Source: Myxococcota bacterium
GTDB taxonomy: Bacteria > Myxococcota_A > Polyangia > Polyangiales > Sandaracinaceae
Assembly: GCA_036149055.1 (NCBI GenBank)
Contig: JAYZQJ010000143.1
Span: 24,046 to 88,045, forward strand
Direction of reading: 5' to 3'
Length of the DNA stretch: 64,000 nt
Positions 5,399-15,156 of the stretch are shown here, one piece after another. The translations under genes were made by a program, and so were the position numbers. How positions within the stretch are numbered: position 1 is the stretch's first letter; every line of letters starts with the position of its first letter. The notes under the pieces were generated by a model that saw only the letters and a program-made list of their open reading frames with translations, searched no databases and was not told the origin of the DNA.

Positions 5399-6379
5399 CT
5401 ATCGGTCGAGGAGCGCGCGCACCGCGGCGATGGCCGCCCGATCGCGCTCGGCCCAGTCGCCGCGGATCACGACGTAGGGGCGCCCGCGCGCCTCGAGCGC
5501 GTCCCGGCAGCGCGCGAAGAACGCCCGGCGATCCTCTGGCCGGTAGCGGTGCACGTCGTCGACCCAGGGCACGTCCACGTCGCAGAGGAGCGTCAGGTCG
5601 TAGGCGGCGCGATCCGCCTCCTCGCAGATCCAGGCCGGGCAGTCGTCGAAGAGCGTCTCGGACCAGATCCGGGTGGTGAGCAGATCGCTGTCGCAGAAGA
5701 GGACCCGGTTCGCGCGCCGGGCGAGCGCCTGCTCCGAGGCGCGCTGCCCCCTCGCGATGCGCGGGATGTCCTCGTAGGCGAGCGCGCCCTCCTGCTCGGC
5801 GATGAGGAGCTGCGCGTACTCGGGCACCGCGACCGTGTCGAACGCCTCGGCCAGGGTGCGAGCGAGGGTGCTCTTGCCGGTGGACTCGGGGCCGAACAAG
5901 CACACGCGCTGGACGAAGTACGGACGCACGCACTCGGGGAGGAAGCGCCAGTGGCCGAGGGGATCCTCCCGGACCGCGGTGCCGCTGACCGGGAGCACCG
6001 ATCGCGCGCGGTCCACCGGCACGAAGGAGGCGCCCAGCACCTGGGCGAGGCGGTGGCCGTAGCTCTCCGACGCGAAGACGTGGTCGAGCGGCCCCTCGGG
6101 CAGCACCCGGCGCAGCGCCGCCTCCCAGATCGCCCAGAACTCCGGGTGCTCGCTCGGGTCCTGCGGCAGCACCTCGTCGAGGTGCACGACGTGGCAGTCG
6201 GGGAAGAGCTCCCGCATCCAGCCGTAGCGGAGGGCGCCGTCGATCGGCTCGTGCGGCATCGTGCCCACGACCACGGTGAGCCGGTCCACGTAGCGGCGCG
6301 CGAACTCGACCAGGTAGACGTGCCCGAGGTGCGGCGGCATGAACTTGCCGAGCACCATGCCCGTGGTCGGTCGCGTCAT
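5399..6379 (-). CDS. NadR-like bifunctional nucleotidyltransferase (HxGH) plus P-loop nucleoside kinase, lacking the HTH domain
   Basis: GKFMPPHLGH motif, VSGTAVR, Walker A GPESTGKS, VPEYA and FCDSD; ATG at 6379 overlaps the NRPS stop. Confidence 0.88.
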   Translation of the reverse strand: MTRPTTGMVLGKFMPPHLGHVYLVEFARRYVDRLTVVVGTMPHEPIDGALRYGWMRELFPDCHVVHLDEVLPQDPSEHPEFWAIWEAALRRVLPEGPLDHVFASESYGHRLAQVLGASFVPVDRARSVLPVSGTAVREDPLGHWRFLPECVRPYFVQRVCLFGPESTGKSTLARTLAEAFDTVAVPEYAQLLIAEQEGALAYEDIPRIARGQRASEQALARRANRVLFCDSDLLTTRIWSETLFDDCPAWICEEADRAAYDLTLLCDVDVPWVDDVHRYRPEDRRAFFARCRDALEARGRPYVVIRGDWAERDRAAIAAVRALLDR

Positions 6380-9057
6380 GAGGCCTCGAGCATACGCCGG
6401 ACGTAGCGGCGGAGGAGCGCCGGATCGGGCGAGGGCGCGACGATCCCGGCGGCCTCGGCCCGGCGGCGATCGAAGCGTGCGCCGGTGGCCTGAAAGAGAT
6501 CCATCGCGCGGCGCTCGTCGCGCTCGCCCAGCGCCCGCGAGAGGGCCAGCCGGGTGGGGGCGTCGATCCGATCGGTCCGCGCGATCGCCTCGCGCGGCGC
6601 CGGCTCGAGGCGCACGCCCTCGGCGCGCATCGCCTCGACGAGGGCCGCCAGCGACGTCGGCCGCGCGGCGCAGAGGTGAAAGGTCTCGAGCGCGCGATCG
6701 GTCCGGGCGCGCAGGACGAGCGTCGCCATCGCCTCGGCCGCGTGGTCGACCGGGGTGACGTCGAAGCCGAGCGCCGGGGCCGCGTCCTCGGGGTAGACGC
6801 CGAGCCGCGCGAGCCCGCGCACGAGCATGCTCAGCCAGTCGTGCGCTGGCGCCGCGGCGGTGGCGCGATCTCCGGTGAGCAGCCCGAGCCGATGCAGGGT
6901 GATCGGGATCGCGCCCTCGGCGCGCCGCACCAGGAGCTCGGCCGCGACCTTGGACTGCGCGTAGCCCCCGTACACCTCGCGGGTCGCGGAGAGATCGCCG
7001 TCTTCGCGCGCCGGCCGCTCGGCGCGATCGGTCGAGACGAAGACCGACAGGGTGGAGGCGAGGTGGAACGACGCGCCGGCCTCGAGCGCGAGCCGGAGGG
7101 CCTCCGCCGTCCCGTCGAGGTTGGTGGCCCGCAGCGCGGCGAAGGAGCGGGCGAGGCTCACGGTCGCCGCGCAGTGCACGACCACGTCCACCGCGTCGGT
7201 CAGCGCGGCCCAGGTCTCCGGGGCGAGCCCGAGCCCGGGCAGGGACACGTCGCCGCGGACCACGTCGGGGAGATCGGTGTCGCGCCGCACCAGGCTCACC
7301 ACCCGGAGCCCGCGCGCGCGGAGCGCGTCGTGGAGGCGGCGCCCGAGGAAGCCGGTCGCGCCGGTGAGGAGCGCGACGCGGGGAGGGCGCGCGGGGCGGG
7401 GCGCGCGCGCGAGGGCGGCCTCGAGCGCGGCCGACGGCCGGGCGACCGCGCGCAGGGCGGCGAGCGTCATCGTCGACGTCTCCTCCGCGTCGAGCGCCCG
7501 GGCGAGGCCGGCCACCGTGGGGTGCGCTTCGACGAGCTCGGGCCCTACGGCGAGCCCGGCCGCGGCCGCGCGGGCGACCAGATCGACGAGCGCGAACGAG
7601 TCGCCGCCCCGCGCGAAGAAGTCGTCGTCGCGCGCCACCGGGACGCCGAGCGCGCCCTCGAACATCGCCGCCAGCTGCGCCTCGAGCGGCGTCTCGAGCT
7701 CGTCTCCGCGGGCCGTGGTGATCGGCGCGTCGGCCAGGGCGGCGAGGTCGACCTTGCCGGTGGCGCCTCGCGGCAGGGCGTCGACGCGCTCGAGCCACGC
7801 CGGGACCATCCAGCCCGGCAGGCGCTCGGCCAGGTGAGCGCGCAGCGCGTCGGCGGACGCCTCGCCTTCGAAGAACCCGACCAGAGCGTCCCGGGCGCCG
7901 AGCCGGCGCTTCTGCACCGCGGCCGCCCGCACCTCGGGGTGCTCCGTCAGCGCGGCCTCGATCTCCTCGGGCGCCACCAGCCGACCCCGCAGCTTGAGCT
8001 GTCGATCGATCCGCCCGAGGAAGACGTACTCGCCGTCTGGCAGGCGCTCGACGCGATCGCCGGTGCGGTAGACGCGGGCGCCCTCGAGCGAGGTGAAGCG
8101 CTCGTGCGGCCCGTCCCCGAGGTAGCCGCGCGCGACCTGCGGGCCGCCGATCCAGAGCTCGCCTTCGACGAGGTGATAGTCGACGCCGGGGAGCGGGCGA
8201 CCGATGCGCGCGCCGTGCGGACGGTCCGGATCGCAGACCCCGAGGCTCGTGCAGACGGTGGCCTCGGTAGGGCCGTACACGTTGACGAGGCGCACGCGCG
8301 CGGCCCAGCGGCGCACGGCGTCCTCGGCGCAGACCTCGCCGCCGATGACCACCGCGCGGAGCGACGCCGGGGCGCGGTCGGGGTCGAGGTGAGGCAGCAG
8401 CGAGGGAGGCAGATCCACGTGTGTGATCGCGTGGCGGTGGAGCGCCGAGAGCACCGCCTCGGGCGTCCGGGCGCGCGAGACGAAGAGCGTCGCCCCGGCG
8501 GTGAGCGCGGTGAAGACGTCCGAGACCGAGGCGTCGAAGCTCGGCGACAGCACCCAGAGCGCGCGATCTCCCGGCCGCAGGTCGAACGCCTCCACCTGCG
8601 CCGCGAGCATCGAGGGCAGCCCCGCGTGCGTCACCACCACCCCCTTCGGCGCGCCCGACGAGCCCGAGGTGAAGATCACATACGCCTCGCGGATGGAGTC
8701 TTCTCGTCCGATCCCCTGCGTTGGGAAACAAAGAAACTCCGTCCCCGTGTCCGTGATCCGGGGGCGGGCGAGGGCGCGCATGGCGGCGCGGCGCTTCTCG
8801 GGGAGCCCCGGGTCGAGGGGCATCCAGGCGGCGCCGCAGCGCCAGGCGGCGATCGCAGAGGTGATCCAGTCGATCGACTTGTCGAGCGCGAGGGCGACGC
8901 GCTCGCCCGGGCCGGCCCCGGCCTCGCGGAGCTGCGTCGCCCGCTCGCCGGTCGCGGCCCAGAGCGCGGCGTAGGTGAGCGCCCGGTCTCCGTCCACGAC
9001 CGCGAGGGCGTCGGGGCGCGCGGCCGCCTGGGCCTCGATGCGGGCGAGCACGCTCAT
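6376..9057 (-). CDS. Stand-alone NRPS-like enzyme, A-PCP-R (adenylation, carrier, thioester reductase)
   Basis: YVIFTSGSSGAPKG (A3), NVYGPTE (A5), YRTGD (A7), GRIDRQLKLRG (A8), GKVD (A10); PCP FFARGGDS; SDR TGATGFLG and YAQSK; no C domain. Confidence 0.92.
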   Translation of the reverse strand: MSVLARIEAQAAARPDALAVVDGDRALTYAALWAATGERATQLREAGAGPGERVALALDKSIDWITSAIAAWRCGAAWMPLDPGLPEKRRAAMRALARPRITDTGTEFLCFPTQGIGREDSIREAYVIFTSGSSGAPKGVVVTHAGLPSMLAAQVEAFDLRPGDRALWVLSPSFDASVSDVFTALTAGATLFVSRARTPEAVLSALHRHAITHVDLPPSLLPHLDPDRAPASLRAVVIGGEVCAEDAVRRWAARVRLVNVYGPTEATVCTSLGVCDPDRPHGARIGRPLPGVDYHLVEGELWIGGPQVARGYLGDGPHERFTSLEGARVYRTGDRVERLPDGEYVFLGRIDRQLKLRGRLVAPEEIEAALTEHPEVRAAAVQKRRLGARDALVGFFEGEASADALRAHLAERLPGWMVPAWLERVDALPRGATGKVDLAALADAPITTARGDELETPLEAQLAAMFEGALGVPVARDDDFFARGGDSFALVDLVARAAAAGLAVGPELVEAHPTVAGLARALDAEETSTMTLAALRAVARPSAALEAALARAPRPARPPRVALLTGATGFLGRRLHDALRARGLRVVSLVRRDTDLPDVVRGDVSLPGLGLAPETWAALTDAVDVVVHCAATVSLARSFAALRATNLDGTAEALRLALEAGASFHLASTLSVFVSTDRAERPAREDGDLSATREVYGGYAQSKVAAELLVRRAEGAIPITLHRLGLLTGDRATAAAPAHDWLSMLVRGLARLGVYPEDAAPALGFDVTPVDHAAEAMATLVLRARTDRALETFHLCAARPTSLAALVEAMRAEGVRLEPAPREAIARTDRIDAPTRLALSRALGERDERRAMDLFQATGARFDRRRAEAAGIVAPSPDPALLRRYVRRMLEAS

Positions 9058-9884
9058 GGGGTGCGCACGTAGTCGACGAGCGCGGAGCCGCGCGAGCGGT
9101 TGTCCACGTTGGGGGCGCCGCGGCCGGCCGCGTGGTCGTCGAGCCAGACCACCCGGAAGTCGAGGCTGTAGCGGGTGGTCCCGCGGCTCTGCGGCCGGGT
9201 CGCGTGGAACTGCGCGCCGCTGAAGCGGAGGTTGTCGCCGCGGCGACACGCGAAGCCGACCGCGGGGCCCGGATCCGGGTCGCCGATCACCCCGGGGTAG
9301 CGCGCCTTCAGGCCGTGGTCGCGGTGCTGCCAGCCGATCTTGAGGTCCCAGCCCTCGCGCACCCAGTCGCCGTACTCGAAGATCTCGGACTCGTTCGGCA
9401 CCGCCGCCGCGAAGCGCTCCGGGTAGAAGACGAAGGTCTCCTCCTCCGGCAGGTCGTGGAGCGGGATCCACCAGGTGATCACCGCCTGCGAGTGCGCGTA
9501 CCAGGTGTCGCGATGCGCCAGGTAGACCGCCTTGGCCCGCGGGTTCTCGTGCCCCCGGTGCGACACGACCCGCAGCCGGATCGGATCGAAGGCGGCGCGC
9601 GCCGGATCCACCCCGCACGCCGCGATCACCTCCCGGACGATCTCGTGCCAGCGCGGTTCGAGGAACAGCGTCCGGCGCACCCGGCCGATCCGCGCGAAGA
9701 GCGTCTCCGGGGAGAGCGCCTCGTGCGCCCTCCGCACGTCGTCCACTCCGAGCTCCGAGGCGAGCAGCGCCTCCGCCTCGGCGGCCGCGCGGCGCGAGGC
9801 CTCGGTGGGCTCGGTCAGGAGCACCGCGCCGTCGTAGAGCGCGGCCCGCGCCGCGTCCCAGCCGGGATCCTCGCGCCGGATCAC
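9054..9884 (-). CDS. Putative 2-oxoglutarate/Fe(II)-dependent oxygenase (PhyH/StrG-like)
   Basis: HxD motif (AHRDTWY), WWIPL, distal His (QFHAT), RYSLDFR; GTG at 9884 overlaps the methyltransferase stop. Confidence 0.65.
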   Translation of the reverse strand: MIRREDPGWDAARAALYDGAVLLTEPTEASRRAAAEAEALLASELGVDDVRRAHEALSPETLFARIGRVRRTLFLEPRWHEIVREVIAACGVDPARAAFDPIRLRVVSHRGHENPRAKAVYLAHRDTWYAHSQAVITWWIPLHDLPEEETFVFYPERFAAAVPNESEIFEYGDWVREGWDLKIGWQHRDHGLKARYPGVIGDPDPGPAVGFACRRGDNLRFSGAQFHATRPQSRGTTRYSLDFRVVWLDDHAAGRGAPNVDNRSRGSALVDYVRTP

Positions 9885-10627
9885 GCCGGCCTCCGCGCGA
9901 GCGCGATGCACCGCGGGCTGTCCACGCCGAGCGGCTCGCCGTCGGTGCTGCCGAGCAGCGTGACCTCCTCGAAGCCGGCCTCGCGCAGCAGCTTCACGAT
10001 CGTGTGCGGCATCAGCAGCCGCACCGCGCTCTCGTGCCGCACCCGCTCGCCGTCGGGCAGGAAGTAGGTCCACGTCTTGCGCATCATGCCGGCGCCGAGG
10101 TCGAGCCGGGTCTCGCGCACCAGGGTCACCTCGCCCCGTGGCGTCTCGCGTCTCGTGACGACCCCGGGCTGGAAGCCGCGGAGCACCCCGGGCAGGTTCA
10201 TCGTGTCGAGCGCGAAGCGGCCGCCCGGGCGCAGGCTCTCGAAGGCCCGCTCGAGCATGCGCGCGCTGTCGACGTCGTCGGCGGAGTAGCCGAAGCTCGT
10301 CCACCAGTTGAACGCCGCGTCGCAGGGCGGATCGGCGACGAAGGCCCGCGCGTCCCCCGCGTGGAGCGCGACCTCGAGGCCGGCCTCGCGCGCCCGGGCC
10401 CGCCCGCGCTCGACGTAGGCCGCCGCCTGATCGACCCCGACGATGTCGCAGCCCCGCGCGGCGAGCGGGATCGCCAGGCTGCCGACGCCGCAGCACTGGT
10501 CGAACACCCGCGCCCCGGCCTCGAGGTCGAGGTGCGCCATCAGGAACCCCACCTCGCGCGCGTCGTCCTCGCGCTCGAGGAGCACGTCCGCGAGCAGCTC
10601 GTCGTAGAGGCCTTCCCACCAGCTCAT
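9881..10627 (-). CDS. Class I SAM-dependent methyltransferase
   Basis: VFDQCCGVG motif I, GVD, GDAR, FNWWTSFGY, LRPGGRFAL. Confidence 0.9.
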   Translation of the reverse strand: MSWWEGLYDELLADVLLEREDDAREVGFLMAHLDLEAGARVFDQCCGVGSLAIPLAARGCDIVGVDQAAAYVERGRARAREAGLEVALHAGDARAFVADPPCDAAFNWWTSFGYSADDVDSARMLERAFESLRPGGRFALDTMNLPGVLRGFQPGVVTRRETPRGEVTLVRETRLDLGAGMMRKTWTYFLPDGERVRHESAVRLLMPHTIVKLLREAGFEEVTLLGSTDGEPLGVDSPRCIALARRPA

Positions 10628-12438
10628 CGTGCGTCTCCCAACCCGAAGCGGCGCTGCAGGAGCGTCGCGGTCAGCGCCAGCATCAGCGCCGGCTCGTGGG
10701 CCGCGCGCTCCGAGGTCGGCCGCGCCGCCTGCGCCTCGAGGGCCGCGCGCACGCGACCGCGGTCGAGGAACGACGGCAGCGCGTCCCACATCGCCTCGTC
10801 TTCGATCAGCGGCGGCGCGAGGAACGGGTGCTTGCGGCGCGTCACCACCTCCTCGGGGAGCCGCCCGCGCATCACCGCCCGCAGCGCGTGCTTCTCGACG
10901 CCGTCGCGGATCTTGTCCTCGAGCGGGAGCCGGAGCGCGACCTCGAACACGCGATGATCCAGAAACGGCGTGCGCCCCTCGATCGACGCCGCCATCTCGG
11001 TCCCGTCCCCCAGCGTGCGCAGGATGTAGCCGGCGAGCGCGAGCTGGGTCCACGTCCAGGCGGCGCGCTCCGGCGGCGCGTCCGTGGGCTCACCCGCGTC
11101 GAGCTCCTCCGCCAGCCCGGCCCAGGTCTCGCCCGGCTCGATCGGGAGCTCCGGCGACAGCAGCGCGCGGAAGCGCCCGGCCAGCAGCGCCTTCGCCTCC
11201 AGCCAGCTCGGGACGAAGCCCAGCGCGGCGCGCAGCTCCGGCAGCGCGGGCGCCGGCGCGTCCGGCATCATCACGCCCCGGTAGCGCGCGCTCTCTCGCT
11301 CGTGCCGCGCGCTCGCCTCCGCGTCCCCGGCCAGCGCGTCGCGCACCAAGTGGGGGTAGCCGAGCAGCGCCTCGTCGGCGCCCTCTCCGGTGAGCACTGC
11401 CTTCGCGCCCGCCTCCCGGATCGCGCGGGCGAGCAGCAGCTTCGCCGGGAGCTGCCCGTTGATCGCGAGCCCCTCCGAGAACCACACGGCGTCCGGCAGC
11501 GCCTCGCGCATGGCCTCCGGGCGCGCGTCCACCACCGTGTGCGTCGCCCCCAGCCGCTCGGCCACCGCCCGGGCGTGCGCCGACTCGTCCCAGCCCTCGC
11601 CGTCGAAGCGCACGCCGAAGGTGCGCGGCGCCTCGCCCCCCGCGAGCGCGACCACCGACGAGGAGTCGAGCCCCCCGCTCAGCGCGAACGCGACCGGCAC
11701 CGTCGCCCGCGCGCGCAGCCGCGCGGCCTCGGTCAGGGCCTCCGCGAGCTCCTCCGGCGTGCTCGGGGCGCGGTCGCGATCCCGCGGGTCCCAGTAGCGC
11801 CGCAGCGTCACGCGCTCGCCCTCCACCAGCAGCAGGTGCGCCGGCGGCACCGCGCGCACCCCGTGGAACATCGTGCGCGACGGGGGCAAGTACTGATGCG
11901 TCGCCACGTGCGCGAGCGACCGGGCGTCCCAGCGCGCCGGCACGCCCATCGCGAACAGCGCCTTGGCCTCCGACGCGACGAGCACCCGCCCCTCGTGCCG
12001 GGCCCACACCAGCGGCTTCACCCCGAAGCGATCCCGCGCCGCGACCAGCCGGCGCCGTCCGGCGTCCCAGAGCGCCATCGCCAGCTCACCCCGCAGCCGC
12101 TCGACGAACGCGTCGCCGTGGACGCGGTAGAGGTGCAGCGCCAGCTCCGAGTCGCTCGAGGTCCGGAAGCGGTGTCCGCGCGCCTCCAGCCCCGCGCGCG
12201 CCTCCTCGTGGCCGTAGAGCTCTCCGTTCACGCTCACCGCGAGGTCGCCGTCCACGATCGGCTGGGCCGCGTCGTCGCCGCCCACGATCGCGAGCCGCGC
12301 GTGCGCCAGCCCCGCGCCGCCCGCCGGGTCGAGCCAGACCGCGTCGCCGTCGGGACCCCGGTGACGCAGCGCCGCGACGCCGGCGCGCAGCCGCCGCGCG
12401 TCGAGGCCCGGGCCGACCACCGCGACCACCCCGCACAT
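10624..12438 (-). CDS. asnB: Asparagine synthase (glutamine-hydrolysing) family amidotransferase
   Basis: N-terminal MCG (Ntn Cys), HRGPD, NGELY, ARDRFGVKPL, SGGLDSS, TGEGADE, EGRTPFLDH. Confidence 0.93.
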   Translation of the reverse strand: MCGVVAVVGPGLDARRLRAGVAALRHRGPDGDAVWLDPAGGAGLAHARLAIVGGDDAAQPIVDGDLAVSVNGELYGHEEARAGLEARGHRFRTSSDSELALHLYRVHGDAFVERLRGELAMALWDAGRRRLVAARDRFGVKPLVWARHEGRVLVASEAKALFAMGVPARWDARSLAHVATHQYLPPSRTMFHGVRAVPPAHLLLVEGERVTLRRYWDPRDRDRAPSTPEELAEALTEAARLRARATVPVAFALSGGLDSSSVVALAGGEAPRTFGVRFDGEGWDESAHARAVAERLGATHTVVDARPEAMREALPDAVWFSEGLAINGQLPAKLLLARAIREAGAKAVLTGEGADEALLGYPHLVRDALAGDAEASARHERESARYRGVMMPDAPAPALPELRAALGFVPSWLEAKALLAGRFRALLSPELPIEPGETWAGLAEELDAGEPTDAPPERAAWTWTQLALAGYILRTLGDGTEMAASIEGRTPFLDHRVFEVALRLPLEDKIRDGVEKHALRAVMRGRLPEEVVTRRKHPFLAPPLIEDEAMWDALPSFLDRGRVRAALEAQAARPTSERAAHEPALMLALTATLLQRRFGLGDAR

Positions 12439-13319
12439 CAGCCCGCGCCCTCCAGCGCCCGCGCCCAGATCTCCTCGGCCGCGCTCGCCGGGGTCAGGAA
12501 CGTCTTCACGTCCTCGCGAGAGCCGAACGCGCGGTCGTACTCGGCGAGCGGCAGCACCGGCCCGAGCAGGTCGTCGACCAGCGACGGACGCTCCTCGAGC
12601 CGCGCGATCGCGTCGTCCATCGGCGCGTAGCGTGCCGTCGCGATCCGGATCTCCCGCTGCACCGCCGCCGCGACGTCGAACGGCACCGGCGCGTACGGGC
12701 GGCTCTTCAACACCAGCGTGCCTCCCGGCCGGAGCGCCGCGATCGCGCGCGTCAGCGTCTCGGCGGTGGCCCGGGTCTCGATCACGAAGTCGAGGTCCGC
12801 GTCCCCCTCGTCGAGCGCCCCGACGTCCGAGAAGCCGGCCTGCGCGAGCACCCGCCGGGTCAGGGTCGCGATCCGCCCGCCGCCGAGGATCCGGCCGCGC
12901 CCGTTCGCCGGCAGCCCGATCCCGAGCACCGCCATCGACGCGGCCATCGGCTCCGCGTACGCGGCGTGCCGCATCGAGAGCCCTCGGGCCCGATGCAGCG
13001 CGCGGCCGGGCACGACGAGCTCCTCCGCGAACGCGCCGTCGCGATCGACCCCGAGGAACACGTCGCGCTCGAGGGCCGGCATCACGCAGACCGCCTCGCC
13101 CGGCGACCACGCCTCCGCCCGGCTCTCCCGGACCACGCCGCAGACCTCGTGCCCGAGCACCCGCGGCTCGTCGACCGGGATGCGACCCTCGGCGACGTAC
13201 ACGTCGGTGCGGCAGACCCCGACGCACACGACCTCGAGCCGGACGTCGCCCGCGCCCACCGTCGGCCGCGCGCCCTCGCCCAGCCGCACCCCGCCCCGCT
13301 CGCGCCGCAGTCCACGCAT
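12438..13319 (-). CDS. Zinc-binding (MDR) alcohol dehydrogenase-like protein
   Basis: GVCRTD and GHE catalytic-Zn motifs, DGAFAEE, AYAEP, GGGRIA; no structural-Zn Cys cluster. Confidence 0.85.
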   Translation of the reverse strand: MRGLRRERGGVRLGEGARPTVGAGDVRLEVVCVGVCRTDVYVAEGRIPVDEPRVLGHEVCGVVRESRAEAWSPGEAVCVMPALERDVFLGVDRDGAFAEELVVPGRALHRARGLSMRHAAYAEPMAASMAVLGIGLPANGRGRILGGGRIATLTRRVLAQAGFSDVGALDEGDADLDFVIETRATAETLTRAIAALRPGGTLVLKSRPYAPVPFDVAAAVQREIRIATARYAPMDDAIARLEERPSLVDDLLGPVLPLAEYDRAFGSREDVKTFLTPASAAEEIWARALEGAG

Positions 13320-13399
13320 GGCCCTCACTTTAGTGTCTGGGCGACACAAATCAATCCCCGACTTGCGTCTCGCGCCGGGGGCCCCACGCCCCCGAGCAC

Positions 13400-14209
13400 A
13401 TGCCGCGCTACCACGGTCACCAGCTCCATGTCTCCGTCGCCGGCCCCGAAGACGGACCGGTCGCGGTCTTCATCCATTCCTCCGGCCTGAGCGGGCGGCA
13501 GTGGAACCGGTACGCCGAGGCGTTCGTGGCCGCGGGCTACCGGGTCCTGGTCCCCGACCTCATCGGGCAGGGCGAGTCCGAGCCCTGGCGCGCCGAGATG
13601 CCGTTCCACTTCCACGCCGACCTCCGCGCCATGGAGGAGCTCGTGTCGGAGGTGGCTGGCCCGGTGACCCTCGTCGGCCACTCCTACGGCGGCCTGCTGA
13701 GCCTCCAGCTCGCGGCGGCGCTACCCCCCGATCGCCTGCGCGCGCTCGTGGTCTACGAGCCGGTCACCTGGGGCGTGCTCCACGCGGAGGACGAGCGCGC
13801 GCTCGCGAGCTTCCGCGAGGACGGCTTCTTCGACGACGCGCTCGGCGGCACCGAGGAGTGGACGCGGCGCTTCGTCGACTACTGGAGCGGCGAGGGCGCC
13901 TACGACGCGCTGCACGAGGCGGCCCGCGCGCAGATGAACCGGAGCGCGCGCAAGACGTTCGAGGAGGTCCGCAGCCTCTGCTACGACTGGACCCCGGCGC
14001 GTCACTACGAGGGCATCGTCTGCCCCACCCTCGTGATGCACGGCACCCGCTCTCCCGCGGAGGCGCAGCGCATCTGCGCCCTCGTCGCCGCCGCCCTGCC
14101 CGCCGCGACCCTCCGCCCGATCGAAGGCGCCGGTCACCTCGGCGCCGTCCAGCTGGCCTCCACCCTCGCCCCTCTCGTCCTCGAGTGGGCGCAGCAGACA
14201 GACCTGTGA
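13400..14209 (+). CDS. Alpha/beta fold hydrolase
   Basis: GHSYGG nucleophile elbow, PDLIGQGES, GAGH catalytic His. Confidence 0.9.
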   Translation: MPRYHGHQLHVSVAGPEDGPVAVFIHSSGLSGRQWNRYAEAFVAAGYRVLVPDLIGQGESEPWRAEMPFHFHADLRAMEELVSEVAGPVTLVGHSYGGLLSLQLAAALPPDRLRALVVYEPVTWGVLHAEDERALASFREDGFFDDALGGTEEWTRRFVDYWSGEGAYDALHEAARAQMNRSARKTFEEVRSLCYDWTPARHYEGIVCPTLVMHGTRSPAEAQRICALVAAALPAATLRPIEGAGHLGAVQLASTLAPLVLEWAQQTDL

Positions 14210-14231: not shown

Positions 14232-15156
14232 CTCTCGCGAAGCCGCCAAGCCGCAAAGGGAGGTGCGGGCGGCGGGGTCGTGACTCGCCGGGTCGGGGCT
14301 GACTGCGGCGGTCTCGTCGACAGCTTTTTTCTCTCGCAGAGGCGCAGAGTCGCAGAGGGGCGGCGGGGTGGCGGCTCGCCGGGTCGGGGTGGGCGGGGAC
14401 GGGTTTGGCGACAGCCTTTTTGTCTCACGCAAAGGCGCAAAGACGCAAAGAGCGAGCGGGGCGGCGAGATGGTGGTTCGCCGGGGCTCGGCGGGTCGTCG
14501 CGGTCTCGCCGACAGCTTTTTGTTTCTCGCAGAGGCGCAGAGTCGCAGAGGGGCGGCGGGGTGGCGGCTCGCCGGGTCGGGGTGGGCTGGCACGGCTTTG
14601 GCGACAGCTTTTTTTGTCTCACGCAAAGACGCAAAGACGCAAAGAGCGAGCGGGGCGGCGAGATGGTGGTCCGCCGGGGCTCGGTGGGTCGTCGCGGTCT
14701 CGTCGACTGCTTTTTGTCTCTCGCAGAGGCGCAGAGTCGCAGAGGGGCGGCGGGGTGGCGGCTCGCCGGGTCGGGGCGGGCTGGCACGGCTTCGGCGACA
14801 GTTTTTTGTCTCACGCAGAGGCGCAGAGTCGCAGAGGGGCGGCGGGATGGCGGCTCGCCTGCCAGTACCCAGCCGCCGGGCGCGGTGGCGTTCCAGGTGG
14901 CTGGCGGCGGTCACGTCACGACCCGGCACGACCTGGCCACCTCCCATCCCGCGGCCCCCAACGCCTCTGCGCCTCTGCGTCTCTGCGAGAAATTAATTGT
15001 CTCCCAGTCGTCAACGATCGGAGGAGCGGCACAATCGTGCCGGCGGTGTGGGCGCTGGCCGTCGGGGACCCGGCGGCCGGGCGCCACGGCGTGCCAGGCG
15101 GCTGGGAGCGCTGAGGCGCTCAGCGGGGACTTGGCGGCTTTGCGCCTTGGCGAGAG
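14232..15156. repeat. REP/BIME-like array 1 of triple-octamer units (CGCAGAGN)x3 and (CGCAAAGN)x3
   Basis: Forward triads at about 14332, 14425, 14526, 14619, 14720 and 14811 (~193-nt two-unit period with repeated linkers); inverted triad at 14965-14990; degenerate inverted terminal copies at 14232-14259 and 15130-15156. Confidence 0.88.

Follow-up and report, generated by a model that had tools for sequence, protein, structure and literature searches.

The last gene of a six-gene operon in a Myxococcota bacterium encodes an HTH-less NadR, and the association of this gene with its five biosynthetic partners recurs in genomes of several phyla, a neighborhood that is real and not a matter of chance. 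We lean, if only slightly, towards the explanation that NadR phosphorylates and adenylylates the amino-alcohol product of an NRPS-like reductase, giving an NAD-like dinucleotide at times when NAD is broken down. What the operon suggests is a natural NAD analogue or, failing that, a new route for making or repairing NAD precursors, and either would be new NAD biochemistry. Below, "the window" denotes the whole 64,000-nucleotide stretch of DNA that was analyzed.

NadR and its operon partners

The NadR protein, taken alone, is a member of a known family. It begins straight with the nucleotidyltransferase domain: PRK08099, a model of full-length NadR (411 positions), aligns only from profile position 64, the first 63 positions being missing, and the N-terminal HTH of the enterobacterial repressor is absent, as the original prediction had stated. 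The HxGH and Walker A motifs that it had called intact are indeed so (Table 1); the former aligns to the motif in the solved proteins 8x7f and 1lw7, which together with 9x6f and 6gye match nearly the whole length (E 1e-36 to 4e-15). The kinase domain belongs to PF13521 (E 7e-39) and retains its Walker A, DxD and WxxDxxR motifs (G163-S170, D230, D232, W272, D275, and R278). Residue 190 is Q, at a position occupied by R in 15 of 15 pnuC-linked and 52 of 68 operon-linked relatives. The best family is TIGR01526, with 289 bits against a cut-off of 341; a pnuC-linked relative (248 bits) likewise falls below, and the miss therefore does not separate pnuC-linked from operon-linked NadRs. Across the family, NadR matches are present in 6 of 32 genomes (a tally that includes the unpublished genome G029). 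The 96%-complete source genome gave no match for a second, housekeeping NadR of the kind that had been proposed as a check, and none for pnuC, which extends to the genome the absence first noticed in the window.

Table 1 Features of the NadR operon in the window
Feature	Position	Strand	Details
Predicted NrtR operator, 21-bp palindrome, GT-N7-AC core	13330..13350	.	TTTGTGTCGCCCAGACACTAA on minus strand
Zinc-dependent medium-chain dehydrogenase	12438..13319	minus	293 aa; operon gene 1
AsnB-family glutamine amidotransferase	10624..12438	minus	604 aa; above TIGR01536 cut-off
Class I SAM methyltransferase	9881..10627	minus	248 aa
PhyH-type Fe(II)/2-oxoglutarate oxygenase	9054..9884	minus	276 aa; single copy in genome
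NRPS-like A-T-R protein	6376..9057	minus	893 aa; adenylation, carrier, thioester reductase
HTH-less NadR	5399..6379	minus	326 aa, single open frame; last operon gene
N-terminal HxGH nucleotidyltransferase motif of NadR	6331-6320	minus	HLGH = residues 17-20
C-terminal ribosylnicotinamide-kinase-type P-loop domain of NadR	Walker A 5893-5870	minus	GPESTGKS = residues 163-170

The six genes lie on the minus strand in the order Zn-dehydrogenase, AsnB, SAM methyltransferase, PhyH-like oxygenase, A-T-R, and NadR, with neighbors overlapping by 1-4 nt each, including the predicted ATGA overlap of NadR with the NRPS-like gene (6376-6379). The AsnB and the NRPS-like reductase had been named correctly, but the methyltransferase had been omitted and one of the two presumed oxidoreductases is the PhyH-type oxygenase. 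Enzymes of this type are not known to use NAD(P). Its HxD...H triad and RxS motif (H124, D126, H227, R238, and S240) are invariant in 34 sequences, and its structure model (pLDDT 95.8) has PhyH-type neighbors at a TM of about 0.45. In the AsnB, Cys2 and the SGGxDS loop are conserved in 49 sequences. The nearest solved relatives of the methyltransferase are mostly amine N-methyltransferases, with some indole C-methyltransferases; the best profile match is 9ri2 (E 1e-38), described in PMC12719100 as NmbA, an N-methyltransferase acting on the cysteine amine of bacillithiol, and the structure model resembles YunM, CcbJ, CgnL, and CypM as well as some indole C-methyltransferases.

The A-T-R protein keeps the core motifs of the A domain, the GGDS carrier serine and the TGxxG and YxxxK motifs of the R domain, and three PPTase-family matches are present in the source genome. 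As judged from its residues, the A domain is of the standard amino-acid type, with D235; relative to PheA, D235 is kept while W239S, T278D, and A301G differ. A W239S change would be expected to widen the pocket, and an acid at position 278 to favor long side chains that are polar or basic. At seven of the ten pocket positions, 54 of 54 homologues carry the same residue, implying a single substrate throughout; the PDB matches give no identification of that substrate.

A TPR gene (14 nt downstream) and a divergent upstream hydrolase flank the operon and are conserved only in one near-identical (99%) copy (L124). The latter, an alpha/beta hydrolase gene (window 13400-14209, plus strand), is 49 nt away from the palindrome and might be under the control of the same operator. 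Beyond it, window 14280-15100 holds no convincing gene, its translations repeat one long unit about three times and its G+C is below that of the flanks; it is probably a tandem non-coding repeat. As for RNA, one run held 18% of the words, and coverage by its contigs is thin and even across the operon and the regions beside it, for which reason we draw no inference on expression.

Conservation of the linkage

The scan of species genomes with NadR yielded 64 loci. Operon genes adjoin NadR in 50 of them (all five partners in 25, some in 25), and the remaining 14 have either pnuC instead (7) or neither pnuC nor operon genes (7). In 37 of the 64, the gene immediately 5' of NadR, or of its kinase domain, is that for A-T-R. 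Operon loci are distributed over nine named phyla, foremost Myxococcota, Melainabacteria, and Planctomycetota, with four further records unranked. Among five genomes with a partial operon, AsnB and dehydrogenase occur together at another place in four and about 8 kb from NadR in the fifth. Two genomes (G056 and G131) have the other operon genes with no NadR adjacent, and in G056 NadR was not found.

Since a NadR scan favors close relatives, we also anchored the search in the reverse direction, on the oxygenase in metagenomes. Among the 71 loci obtained, 45 carry an oxygenase of at least 44% identity, and NadR is visible in 21 of these; where the sequence extends far enough to either side, NadR is present in 10 of 10 loci, among them a copy of the window at 99% identity. 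No operon gene was found at any of the 26 oxygenases more distant than 44%. A distant sister family of the oxygenase (ca. 31% identity; L165, L170, L174, L177, and L185) adjoins sugar-type C-methyltransferase genes and never the operon.

NadR is also linked to the reductase by fusion. In L061 and L062, the kinase domain and the R domain form a single in-frame protein (1089 aa), which suggests that the kinase uses the product released by the reductase; L062 has a separate NadR as well, and there Walker A is lost. A fusion of methyltransferase and oxygenase occurs in L036-L039. The nucleotidyltransferase signature is lost in 9 of 68 operon-linked NadRs, all of them from Melainabacteria and all with a tandem NadD-like gene directly upstream; thus, both activities are kept. 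The tandem gene itself (L046:2326-3693 and ten other Melainabacteria loci) encodes a 455-aa protein with two NadD domains. Together, the conserved operon, the reductase-kinase fusions, the retention of both activities and the rarity of pnuC bear out the proposal that NadR is coupled to the cluster.

Ancestry of the operon NadR

For the NadR phylogeny, 95 of the 133 loci with a match were entered together with the window, the other 38 being left out (19 as duplicates, 15 as partial, and 4 because of a stop or identity). In a quick tree, 67 of 68 operon-linked rows form one clade with no pnuC-linked row inside (SH-aLRT 92). In a careful tree of 59 rows, built after the removal of 37 that were long-branched, near-copies or unlabelled, all 46 operon rows form one clade (support 93/95, the bootstrap not being settled) nested among pnuC-linked rows. 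The original prediction had asked whether cluster-linked copies form a clade of their own; they do in these trees, but within the pnuC-linked ones, and joining the window NadR to its nearest pnuC-linked relatives is not rejected by the AU test (27 log units worse, p-AU 0.22). A constrained tree compatible with both readings came out 4.5 log units better than the free search, which had therefore not converged, and a decisive split of the operon clade from pnuC-linked NadRs was not obtained.

The window NadR shares 53-61% identity with its nine nearest pnuC-linked copies, as close as it is to many operon members. Only about ten positions, mostly conservative, separate the two groups, the clearest being Q to V/H at 277 in the kinase domain, and a diagnostic substrate switch was not recognized among them. 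Based on the nested clade, this identity and the few separating positions, we consider it probable that a salvage NadR was taken into the operon a single time and has changed little since, its substrate being NR itself or a good mimic.

A predicted NrtR operator

The palindrome upstream of the operon, which the original prediction had not mentioned, lies 10 nt before the ATG of the dehydrogenase. With up to two mismatches, its pattern occurs at three sites in the 9.9 Mb genome (reversed control, 0): this one, a second located 1 nt before pncB of a pncB-nrtR operon (contig C248) and a third before a kinase-like/vWA-like/adenylosuccinate-synthetase-like operon. The 21-bp symmetry and the GT-N7-AC core are those of the NrtR consensus, and NrtR is released by ADP-ribose (Rodionov et al. 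2008, PMC2330246). At the third location (G000:C224:653-3837; L206, L199) the NrtR-type site lies 11 nt before the operon, one of whose products is PurA-like (PF00709), and this operon probably belongs to the same regulon. A fourth match, to the matrix described below, is inside a coding region (C99) and was treated as chance. The source genome has two NrtR-type genes (PF21906 matches); near the second of them, a winged-helix gene at G000:C128:143494-143676, a matching palindrome was not found.

The site was followed in relatives with an operator matrix built from five non-operon sites, which is not fully independent, as these training sites were found with a window-derived pattern. At a threshold of at least 15 bits, 7 of 46 other loci give a match in front of the dehydrogenase, against 0 of 380 cases in front of internal genes, these controls being mostly coding DNA and one control row coming from unpublished genome G029. 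By length, there are 7 matches in 15,080 nt upstream of other operons versus 1 in 770,934 nt elsewhere, and the lone match elsewhere is located before an nrtR that is the leading gene of the operon. With a looser palindrome rule, 11 of 47 other loci have a site (0.008 expected per stretch searched), and the other 36 gave nothing operator-like ahead of the dehydrogenase. In six loci (L008, L012, L014, L024, L140, and L167) nrtR itself is within 2.5 kb of the first operon gene. An NrtR match is present in 46 of 54 operon genomes (including one duplicate) versus 89 of 301 in an even phylum sample; in the latter, NrtR accompanies all of the 8 other operons that are linked to NadR, and G056 and G131 lack it. 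Because of the shared ancestry of related genomes, we claim no test on this co-occurrence. A sigma-70 promoter scan at the operon found none, and flanking hexamers noticed by eye were left uncounted.

Given that the palindrome is one of only three in the genome, that another precedes pncB-nrtR and that it recurs in some relatives, the operon is probably derepressed by ADP-ribose through this predicted operator. Such an operator would tie the operon to NAD homeostasis and not to ordinary secondary metabolism.

NAD genes of operon-bearing genomes

The gene pnuC is rare alongside the operon (3 of 54 genomes), NadD matches above cut-off are present in 39, NadA in 42 and 3-HAO in 22, both of the latter being absent in five (one a duplicate). 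The source genome has matches to nadC, nadD, nadE, and pncB and, at 96% completeness, none to nadA or 3-HAO; as a same-genus relative (G018) has NadA, the missing nadA is likely an assembly gap. The idea that the operon replaces de novo NAD synthesis was rejected, because 49 of 54 genomes have NadA, 3-HAO or both; the persistence of de novo genes implies that the operon adds to normal NAD synthesis instead of replacing it.

A proposed pathway and its alternatives

From the six genes, their overlaps, conservation and fusions, and the palindrome, we infer both the regulation and every chemical step of the following scheme. Cleavage of NAD would yield ADP-ribose, and NrtR would leave the operator. 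The A domain would then load one particular amino acid, whose side chain would be long and either polar or cationic. The R domain, aided by the Zn-dehydrogenase, would reduce the carboxyl group of this amino acid to CH2OH. The methyltransferase would methylate, most likely on nitrogen, creating a cationic center that resembles a pyridinium, AsnB would add a nicotinamide-like carboxamide and the oxygenase would hydroxylate, in whatever order. Finally, the NadR kinase would form the phosphate and the nucleotidyltransferase would attach AMP. The product would have no glycosidic bond for an NADase to cleave and would be kept in the cell as an inhibitor of, or a stand-in against, NAD-destroying enzymes. 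A bolder version, in which the SAM enzyme places the four-carbon amino-acid arm of SAM on nicotinate to give a pyridinium chain with the N-to-phosphate spacing of NMN, is not supported: the aminocarboxypropyl transfer that it needs finds no backing, the nearest solved relatives being methyltransferases.

The conserved linkage, the kinase-R fusions, the retention of both NadR activities, the scarcity of pnuC, the amino-acid A domain and the operator all speak for a dinucleotide made from the reductase product. Against it stand the closeness to pnuC-linked NadRs, the p-AU of 0.22, the 36 of 47 loci with no site and the separation of the genes in G056 and G131; in particular, 53-61% identity and few differing positions fit an unchanged NR/NMN substrate. 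This last point agrees with an alternative that we judge rather unlikely, though the most serious one, in which the five enzymes replace PnuC by making or repairing genuine NR, NMN or a deamidated or oxidized form, AsnB restores the amide and an unchanged NadR completes NAD. The five genes do sit where pnuC does, also behind nrtR (nrtR...pnuC-nadR in L018 compared with nrtR-five genes-nadR in L012, L014, and L024), the NadRs of the operon are descended from those linked to pnuC, the active site being almost the same, and the NrtR regulons of Table 1 in PMC2330246 consist mostly of NAD synthesis and salvage genes. However, the operon contains no conserved ribosyl or phosphoribosyl transferase, and no ribosyl transferase recurs among the neighbors of the 64 loci, the A domain, with its D235, is of the amino-acid type, de novo genes remain in 49 of 54 genomes, and the nadC, nadD, nadE, and pncB of the source genome already cover amidation and adenylylation.

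The five enzyme types are all frequent in natural-product clusters, and kinases and nucleotidyltransferases are known self-resistance enzymes. The five enzymes might make a secreted molecule, e.g., an NR-like antimetabolite, from which NadR protects the producer by modification or by topping up NAD. We consider this improbable, as no exporter recurs among the neighbors of the 64 loci, two activities that act in sequence are retained or substituted jointly, the kinase and the synthetase occur as a fusion, an operator predicted to sense ADP-ribose would be unexpected for an antibiotic cluster and NadR would be expected to activate, not detoxify, an NR mimic; detoxification by NadR, one of the roles initially suggested, is possible but weak. 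Least probable of all, to our mind, is that NadR is a salvage enzyme of the usual kind that accompanies the cluster as a passenger or only feeds NAD(P)H to the oxidoreductases, a supply role that the original prediction had also entertained. NadR is the only one in the source genome, nests among salvage enzymes and is found apart from other operon genes in two genomes, but the linkage outlasts gene-order changes in nine phyla, the kinase-reductase fusion occurs twice, there is usually no NR transporter to feed NadR and NadD is above cut-off in 39 of 54 genomes. Of the observations that had been named as telling against a special role, a sole NadR and a position among salvage enzymes were both found, whereas another, no linkage in other genomes, is clearly contradicted by the 50 of 64 loci.

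If the reductase product is indeed what NadR activates, a more general proposal can be put forward tentatively, and we would not yet count on it: many phyla may answer NAD destruction, perceived as ADP-ribose via NrtR, with an amino-acid-derived, NADase-proof NAD mimic that serves as an inhibitor or a cofactor stand-in. Bacterial immunity, phage counter-defence, and interbacterial toxins all rely centrally on the destruction of NAD, and the responses to it of which we know either rebuild NAD from fragments or import precursors. The operon is tractable for tests, as it comprises six genes in 8 kb, its A-domain pocket is invariant and its predicted operator is defined.

Relation to known systems

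Among the closest known systems is pnuC-nadR NR salvage (HTH-less NadR; TIGR01526; PDB 1lw7, 6gye, and 9x6f; found on phages too, e.g., Caulobacter phage CcrSC), which has the same two domains and motifs and whose myxobacterial, planctomycete, and acidobacterial copies are those from which the operon NadR derives. Unlike it, the operon has five biosynthetic genes in place of pnuC, the kinase-reductase fusion in two loci and a sub-cut-off TIGR01526 score, a shortfall shared by the pnuC-linked relative above. Stand-alone A-T-R enzymes that reduce their substrates include the fungal glycine betaine reductase ATRR, and the layout, which releases an aldehyde or alcohol, is also that of the A-T-R part of the myxochelin enzyme MxcG, aminoadipate reductase Lys2, and carboxylic acid reductase (CAR). 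Compared with these, the operon protein scores far under the curated cut-offs (bits/cut-off: MxcG 421/2300, Lys2 148/1030, CAR 119/1300), has no condensation domain and carries a distinct invariant pocket. We know of no stand-alone reducing NRPS-like enzyme that feeds a kinase and a nucleotidyltransferase. A cationic or nucleoside-like alcohol is phosphorylated and then joined to a nucleotide in the CDP-choline (Kennedy) route and in the NRK/NMNAT activation of nucleoside drugs, e.g., tiazofurin; these, however, involve different enzyme families or foreign substrates, whereas the operon would, by analogy, make its own. Altemicidin biosynthesis uses NAD as a building block, with a PLP enzyme that consumes it, and includes a 2-oxoglutarate oxygenase and a methyltransferase; in contrast, there is no PLP enzyme among the six genes, and the proposed last step would build, not dismantle, a dinucleotide.

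With the NrtR regulons of Rodionov et al. (2008, PMC2330246) the operon shares the 21-bp GT-N7-AC palindrome near a start codon, as does the pncB-nrtR of the source genome, an arrangement that appears in their Table 1. The targets in that table are NAD synthesis and salvage, pentose, draG, and nrtXY genes, with no NRPS-like or biosynthetic operon among them. Our literature searches, which had limited reach into subscription journals, found no description of the six-gene operon. As a system, i.e., a predicted ADP-ribose-responsive unit that would combine NRPS-type reduction with NadR, it matches no known kind among those compared here.

Other neighborhoods of NadR

Several further contexts were seen at NadR loci. 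In two Mycobacterium records (L045 and L053, 8568-10927) a B12-dependent radical SAM gene precedes a NadR of the operon clade and the five partners are absent, possibly a second biosynthetic context. In proteobacterial loci (L054:10936-11763, L049, L059, and L069) NadR adjoins an uncharacterized family of 265-280 aa, for which no Pfam or NCBIfam family was found above cut-off. An EndoU-like nuclease gene (L062:11540-12037) follows the split NadR. Among phages, 788 records of the collection match NadR, the best being Caulobacter phages (47% identity, e.g., L200:3330-5002), and the one phage locus that was opened has pnuC directly upstream. At L057:1923-3485, an ADP-ribosylglycohydrolase gene comes after a pnuC-nadR pair.
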